DNA of 64,000 nucleotides from Eledone cirrhosa (Eukaryota): positions 362,576,001 through 362,640,000 of the forward strand of contig OZ024740.1 in the NCBI GenBank assembly GCA_964016885.1, written 5' to 3'. Of the stretch, positions 15,304 to 15,416 are shown one piece after another. Positions within the stretch are counted from its first letter, which is position 1, and each line of letters begins with the position of its first letter. The notes below the pieces were generated by a model. That model was not told the origin of the DNA and made no database searches. It saw only the letters and a program-made list of their open reading frames with translations. Made by a program: the position numbers and the translations under genes.

Positions 15304-15370
15304 AATTCGGACTGCCTGAAGAGGTCACAGCTAATAATAGCTGTCACCGAAATATATATTGCAGAGAATT
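15304..15370 (+). ncRNA. Intact minimal type I hammerhead ribozyme motif
   Basis: aauuc gga CUGC CUGAAGA ggucacagcua auaa uagcugucacc GAAA uauaua UU GCAG a gaauu; all core nucleotides present; AATAAA at 15381. Confidence 0.8.
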
Positions 15371-15416
15371 TATAATTTATAATAAACGAAGCCAAATTTT
15401 ACATGTTTGACTTACT

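Follow-up and report, generated by a model that had tools for sequence, protein, structure and literature searches.

This locus raises the question of whether a hammerhead ribozyme motif that lies sense in an intron of an octopus gene cuts the host pre-mRNA, and from what kind of element it derives. We find that the motif is genuine. A loose hammerhead descriptor run over both strands of the window, that is, the whole 64-kb stretch of DNA analyzed, gave a single match, compared with a mean of 0.04 in 50 block shuffles, and this match reads CUGAAGA-stem II-GAAA-AUAUAUAU-U-GCAG (Table 1). The type I core is present throughout (C3 U4 G5 A6 N7 G8 A9, G12 A13 A14, A15.1-U16.1 and H17), with H17 represented by U, a weak option. 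The core, stem I, the 11-position stem II, the palindrome, the AUU triplet and the AAUAAA hexamer are all located where the earlier sequence-only reading had placed them; the triplet reads from 15358 to 15360, and the strands of stem II run from 15323 to 15333 and from 15338 to 15348 around the loop AUAA. Taken in isolation, the motif forms stems I and II in its predicted fold, plus the AAUUC/GAAUU extension (z −1.8); helices I and II can both form, helix I in the isolated motif only. Seven hand-picked rows gave 96.4% paired cells, two stem II pairs with changes on both sides, and a covariation score that was reached by 27 of 500 shuffles. An Rfam search returned no hammerhead match at either the gathering score or E ≤ 10.

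The motif had also been described as sense to the host intron and about 510 nt before an exon. This proved correct, as an exon begins at 15882 and the motif lies 511–518 nt upstream of it, in an intron of about 26.5 kb. The protein matches of this exon are to RASEF/EFCAB4-like proteins of Octopus species and Argonauta (five matches of eight candidates), and a Pfam search of the exon gave nothing useful. By tblastn, the host exons follow each other in order on the plus strand, over a span that extends between about 59.7 kb before the window and at least 8–8.5 kb after it; the one preceding 15882–15997 terminates at a GTAAGT donor some 10.6 kb ahead of the window. The gene has EF-hand, coiled-coil and Rab domains and spans at least 132 kb, with exons in the window near 15882, 16922, 19102, 32676, 42437, 44929 and 46842.

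Table 1. Features around the intronic hammerhead motif, in window coordinates.
Feature	Position	Strand	Basis
Separate short high-copy TA-associated repeat, not part of the hammerhead element	15116–15176		1,706 candidates, best 40 scored
5′-truncated copy (pLTR only) of a Hydra-clade-like Penelope-like retrotransposon	15186–15424	+	Alignment of 30 loci
Stem I extension AAUUC, partner GAAUU at 15366–15370	15304–15308	+	Partly kept in the family, absent from the sister family
Minimal type I hammerhead motif	15312–15364	+	Sequence and descriptor scan, chance 0.04 per window
Stem I 5′ strand CUGC, partner GCAG at 15361–15364	15312–15315	+	Invariant in 7/7 aligned copies
Core C3–A9, CUGAAGA	15316–15322	+	Sequence; CUGAUGA in the sister family
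Stem II hairpin, 10 pairs and a C.C mismatch common to both families	15323–15348	+	Pair probabilities 0.56–1.0 in all contexts
Core G12–A15.1, GAAA	15349–15352	+	Sequence
Palindromic mini stem III, AUAUAUAU; predicted dimer duplex	15352–15359	+	Monomer pairing 0.01–0.03; 8-bp duplex in cofold of an A17 copy
Predicted cleavage position 17, U here and A in the family	15360	+	Copy alignments and genome matches; base from the assembly alone
AAUAAA, the element's own sequence, present in most aligned copies	15381–15386	+	Alignment of copies
(TA)n tract at the 3′ junction, usual insertion context of the family	15422–15477		Sequence; 30 loci
Internal coding exon of the host RASEF/EFCAB4-like gene	15882–15997	+	85–88% identity to octopod proteins; tblastn exon chain

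The motif is contained in a 239-nt stretch that forms the 3′-end (pLTR) of a Penelope-like element present in high copy number. Searching the animal's own 3.0-Gb genome yielded 3,730 candidates, and the best 40 of these, which were scored and include 39 other places, match 15186–15424 only, at 90–95% identity. Thirty loci were fetched for the boundary alignment: 19 run directly into (TA)n, 10 do so after an extension of about 100 nt and one does neither, and several carry an inverted piece at the 5′-end. Longer copies encode a reverse transcriptase (RT) with a C-terminal GIY-YIG endonuclease (EN) and end in (TA)n, which supplies the link to Penelope RT/GIY-YIG ORFs that the sequence-only reading had proposed to look for. 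Walking upstream through the sequence common to the copies leads through a 1.25-kb untranslated region, the GIY-YIG endonuclease and the RT to a second pLTR, oriented like the first. At four loci pLTR sequence flanks the RT-GIY-YIG ORFs, and two of these have the order (pLTR)-extension-RT-EN-UTR-pLTR over 4.2–4.6 kb. All of the element ORFs inspected are interrupted by stops or frameshifts; the GIY-YIG domain matched Pfam with E-values of 0.00025 and 0.005, just under the curated cut-off, and a Pfam search of the RT piece gave nothing useful. Partial tandem and inverted pLTR insertions, 5′ truncations and an optional 3′ tail, all features of EN+ Penelope-like elements, occur among the copies. 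RT ORFs near L007, L028 and L029 were considered as partners of the element and dropped, as they belong to other families nearby and colinear copies were found instead. At these three loci and at L063 and L066, copies of the element have pieces of ORFs (MGSxDSA, YRDD, RMRWK) from further Hydra-type families next to them, and the N-terminus at L028 resembles Hydra-1_Obim by eye.

A solo terminal repeat had been proposed for 15119–15420. The copy is indeed a solo pLTR, but its bounds are those given in Table 1, and the segment upstream of it is a separate repeat: none of the 15 other fetched loci of the 15116–15176 repeat continues directly into the hammerhead pLTR. One independent contig spans the 5′ junction (15149–15235). 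The upstream repeat is often found as an inverted pair, and on the minus strand its sequence is GAAA-CAGC-loop-GUUG-UC, which resembles a hammerhead's 3′ half having a GUC site and a stable stem III; a pattern search for the full hammerhead, including a CUGANGA half, gave no matches for this repeat. Another TA-associated repeat, a long imperfect hairpin common to five of the loci, occupies 15478–15685. Fragments of a LINE-type RT element, which we take to be RTE-like, are found at 4113–5587, 14130–14735, about 49000–55000 and 59700–61000, and 4113–5587 forms a 97% inverted pair with 49941–51415, 44 kb away and within the host gene.

By its motifs and its (TA)n target site the element appears to be a Hydra-clade-like member of the C-terminal EN+ PLEs, a clade for which the available portion of Craig et al. 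(2021; PMC8557442) defines the marks RWK, DKT, CxCX5C, CxxC and CxH. RWK occurs as RRMRWKAF in two copies and DKT as HADKTNNLY in three; by eye, the translations give CNCRTLTLC or CNCRNPALC for the CxCX5C linker, CNLC for CxxC and CRH for CxH. CxxC and CxH surround a conserved E and N without a CCHH motif, as in the clade (same portion of PMC8557442), the last His of CCHH being absent with SELIW at its expected place (by eye). Insertion into (TA)n was seen at 29 of the 30 loci, 19 directly and 10 after the extension, and this target, a terminal hammerhead and an octopod host are shared with the clade, including Hydra-1_Obim, as described there. Hydra elements are generally <3 kb, which the portion of PMC8557442 consulted presents as a tendency and not as a strict criterion, whereas the element described here is about 4.2–4.6 kb, with low-complexity inserts in the ORF, a 1.25-kb 3′ UTR and clear pLTRs. 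We attribute the greater length to the ORF inserts. In three copies the ORF has Pro/Gly/Thr-rich low-complexity inserts between the RT and the thumb, and before the linker. Both the protein and the hammerhead of Hydra-1_Obim of Octopus bimaculoides, as given in the same source, differ by eye from those found here, and we therefore regard the element as another family. A literature search found no description of it, and it may already be catalogued in Repbase or Dfam.

By the features tested, the motif is the minimal PLE hammerhead of an EN+ Penelope-like element. This agrees with the earlier proposal, which traced a minimal type I hammerhead to the terminal repeat of a Penelope-like element, and thousands of paralogues keep the core. 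The min-HHRs in metazoan PLE pLTRs, in the part of Cervera and De la Pena (2014; PMC4209133) available to us, are likewise of type I, with a 4-bp helix I with an ill-defined loop, a long helix II, G10.1-C11.1 and a palindromic 15.2–16.2/loop 3, and they too are mostly solo copies from truncated elements, with inverted pairs 100–700 bp apart. The unpaired residue separating positions 9 and 10.1 that is frequent in PLE min-HHRs is absent here, where A9 (15322) is followed directly by the pair G15323-C15348. The PAc Poseidon element of Anolis, in the accessible text of PMC11167929, resembles our element in that its pLTR hammerhead can be succeeded by a 3′ extension ("tail") that reaches the start of the ORF, its 3′-ends fall into two classes and its targets are AT-rich. 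It belongs to another clade, however, and in the element described here the extension is about 100 nt and the hammerhead is upstream of the ORF.

The ribozyme had been called intact. Under the NUH rule this is right, as AUU is a permitted and cleavable triplet, one tier below AUA in the section of PMC8879150 consulted, but measured against its own family the copy is altered, since the family has A17 and the copy U17. With A or T allowed at position 17, the genome holds 3,714 exact matches to the 3′ 22-mer of the motif, and 27 of these have T; the reversed 22-mer gave no exact match. A17 was found in all 64 other distinct aligned copies, these being the best matches from the fetched loci and not a random sample. 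The other 11 core positions are kept in the window copy, and a rare C-to-U change at 15332 restores one stem II pair. The base T15360 is that of the assembly alone: among independent contigs from three runs of one sample, which are in short pieces in the repeat, none covers 15360–15365 at 100% likeness. We point out that the supplement of PMC8557442, in the part at hand, lists the Hydra-1_Obim hammerhead with a U at the cleavage site.

The change at position 17 lengthens the palindrome from 8 to 10 nt. In equilibrium predictions, which do not model co-transcriptional folding, the cofolded dimer of the window copy pairs U17 with A14 of the partner, and U17 is thereby predicted to close the core; in the cofold of an A17 copy the core stays open around an 8-bp stem III duplex. 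For the monomer of the window copy, stem III has a pair probability of 0.01–0.03, and stem I one of 0.76 in isolation, 0.05–0.13 with 175–400 nt of context and 0.00 with 1 kb.

The genome also contains a sister family with a CUGAUGA core and the same palindrome and stem I, represented by 3,577 pattern matches genome-wide, and both searches together give >7,000 motif matches with AUAUAUAU, with slight overlap between the searches. A minor variant of the sister family with a longer loop II is also present. Between the families, stem II has one change on both sides (C-G to U-A) and one from G-C to G-U, with the C.C mismatch kept, a pattern that weakly fits selection on the fold in active lineages. 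All 12 core positions are kept in 48 of the 64 dispersed copies, where 20 of 768 core positions (2.6%) and 65 of 1664 stem positions (3.9%) have changed (p = 0.12); in this alignment conservation of the core does not significantly exceed that of the stems, and the dispersed copies appear to decay. An apparent excess of conservation in the core over the flanks (p = 4e-5), counted with 14 subfamily-polymorphic columns left out, was rejected as inflated by junctions and indels. The comparison of subfamilies gave 3/53 changes in the motif and 25/157 elsewhere (p = 0.06). Compared with the majority sequence of 29 copies, the window copy is changed at 8 of 228 positions (3.5%), with other copies at 1.8–5.7%, and the calibration quoted in the accessible text of PMC13282606, a distance of 0.09 for 25 My, would by rough inference make the copy on the order of 10 My old.

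We consider it very probable that the locus is a truncated Penelope-like retrotransposon reduced to its 239-nt 3′-end, which carries a minimal type I hammerhead, inserted at (TA)n in an intron, and that this solo copy is likely catalytically silent and spliced out. In the parent element, the two pLTR hammerheads of a tandem transcript would build an 8-bp stem III by pairing at AUAUAUAU and would then cleave after AUA, with the element's protein probably assisting; we infer this dimer mechanism from PMC4209133, the available part of which reports no cleavage by single minimal PLE hammerheads and low cleavage by dimers. A 5′-truncated reverse transcript would then have left the pLTR alone at the intron site, where the copy would since have decayed to 3.5% from the family majority, and its likeliest fate would be to be transcribed within the intron and removed by splicing without cleavage. 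In the sections of PMC11167929 that we draw on, the PAc hammerhead required the element's protein in order to cleave, none of the RNA reads terminated at its site and it was not needed for insertion in vitro.

The sequence-only reading had suggested that the ribozyme could cut the host pre-mRNA, and this is not borne out. The copy is solo and has no sense partner: a second sense copy of either family is absent from the 194 kb searched around the gene, and the sole relative in that span, which lies upstream of the first host exon mapped, is antisense. The absence of a partner copy in the gene, together with the rare change at the cleavage site, leads us to regard the host RNA as likely uncut, and the predictions agree, with stem III nearly unpaired in the monomer, stem I at ≤0.13 in context and U17 closing the predicted dimer core. 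The relative itself is a truncated sister-family copy on the minus strand, about 76.8–79.75 kb before the window, with identities of 71% in the RT and 75% in the EN and a complete-looking A17 hammerhead.

Alternatively, the copy could pair in trans with another AUAUAUAU RNA, either a second nascent transcript of the gene or an element transcript with its protein, and by low-rate cleavage of the host pre-mRNA could lower or reroute splicing across the 26.5-kb intron. The motif has the sense orientation, its core is otherwise complete, the palindrome is shared by the >7,000 matches of the two slightly overlapping searches, the dimer cofold lies 8.8 kcal/mol below two monomers, and AUU can be cleaved (PMC8879150, in the section consulted). 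However, A14 and U17 are paired in the dimer predicted for this copy, such dimers are described as weakly active even in cis in the available part of PMC4209133, no cis partner exists in the 194 kb, and the dispersed copies give no sign of a core better kept than the stems. We regard trans cleavage as very unlikely.

Even less likely is that AAUAAA and the U/GU-rich stretch behind it act as a cryptic intronic poly(A) site, independently of the ribozyme, to yield a short EF-hand/coiled-coil isoform without the Rab domain. The hexamer is followed by CA and UGUUUGACUUACUUAUUUU, all sense to the host; it is nevertheless common in AT-rich introns, and here it is the element's own sequence in most copies and not a host feature. 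U1 snRNP, moreover, suppresses intronic poly(A) sites. For the element, we suggest that AAUAAA is a possible poly(A) signal.

The least probable reading, that of a non-LTR retrozyme monomer making circular RNA, has in its favor a length of about 240 nt and a type I hammerhead, which fit such monomers and their proposed origin as pLTR derivatives (bioRxiv 10.64898/2026.07.22.740005, in the text available), but no second unit occurs in the window or the gene span, the copies are colinear 5′ truncations of the RT-EN element, and an active retrozyme requires two consecutive units with complete hammerheads (same text). Animal non-LTR retrozymes share the short non-coding unit with a type I hammerhead, as far as the text consulted goes, whereas the unit described here forms no tandem array and derives directly from an autonomous RT-EN element. 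A retrozyme circle based on the rod-like fold of 15119–15420 (z −3.8) was rejected, as 15116–15176 belongs to another family and the pairing depends on that junction. In Xenopus, about 43% of related retrozyme copies overlap introns according to the available part of the same preprint, whose main text, to that extent, leaves octopus unmentioned; a literature search on intronic hammerheads gave nothing useful.

As it stands, the locus, a silent and spliced-out pLTR in the reading that we favor, is an ordinary transposon remnant. Its value lies in what it led to: a curated family of octopod Penelope-like elements whose pLTRs are clear, its sister family, and thousands of natural hammerhead copies in one genome. 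We can speculate, as a long shot, that two Hydra-clade-like families have seeded the octopod genome with >7,000 AUAUAUAU hammerheads whose sense intronic copies could be switched on in trans by element expression, which would provide both an RNA partner half and a protein chaperone, so as to cut host pre-mRNAs, with U17 as a selected damping change. Given a gene annotation, the set of copies also opens a general question to study, namely whether sense intronic copies that retain the whole core are depleted, a pattern that would demonstrate RNA cleavage by PLE hammerheads in vivo. Were the present copy to cut the pre-mRNA of the RASEF/EFCAB4-like gene, a calcium-binding Rab gene would carry a switch derived from a transposon.
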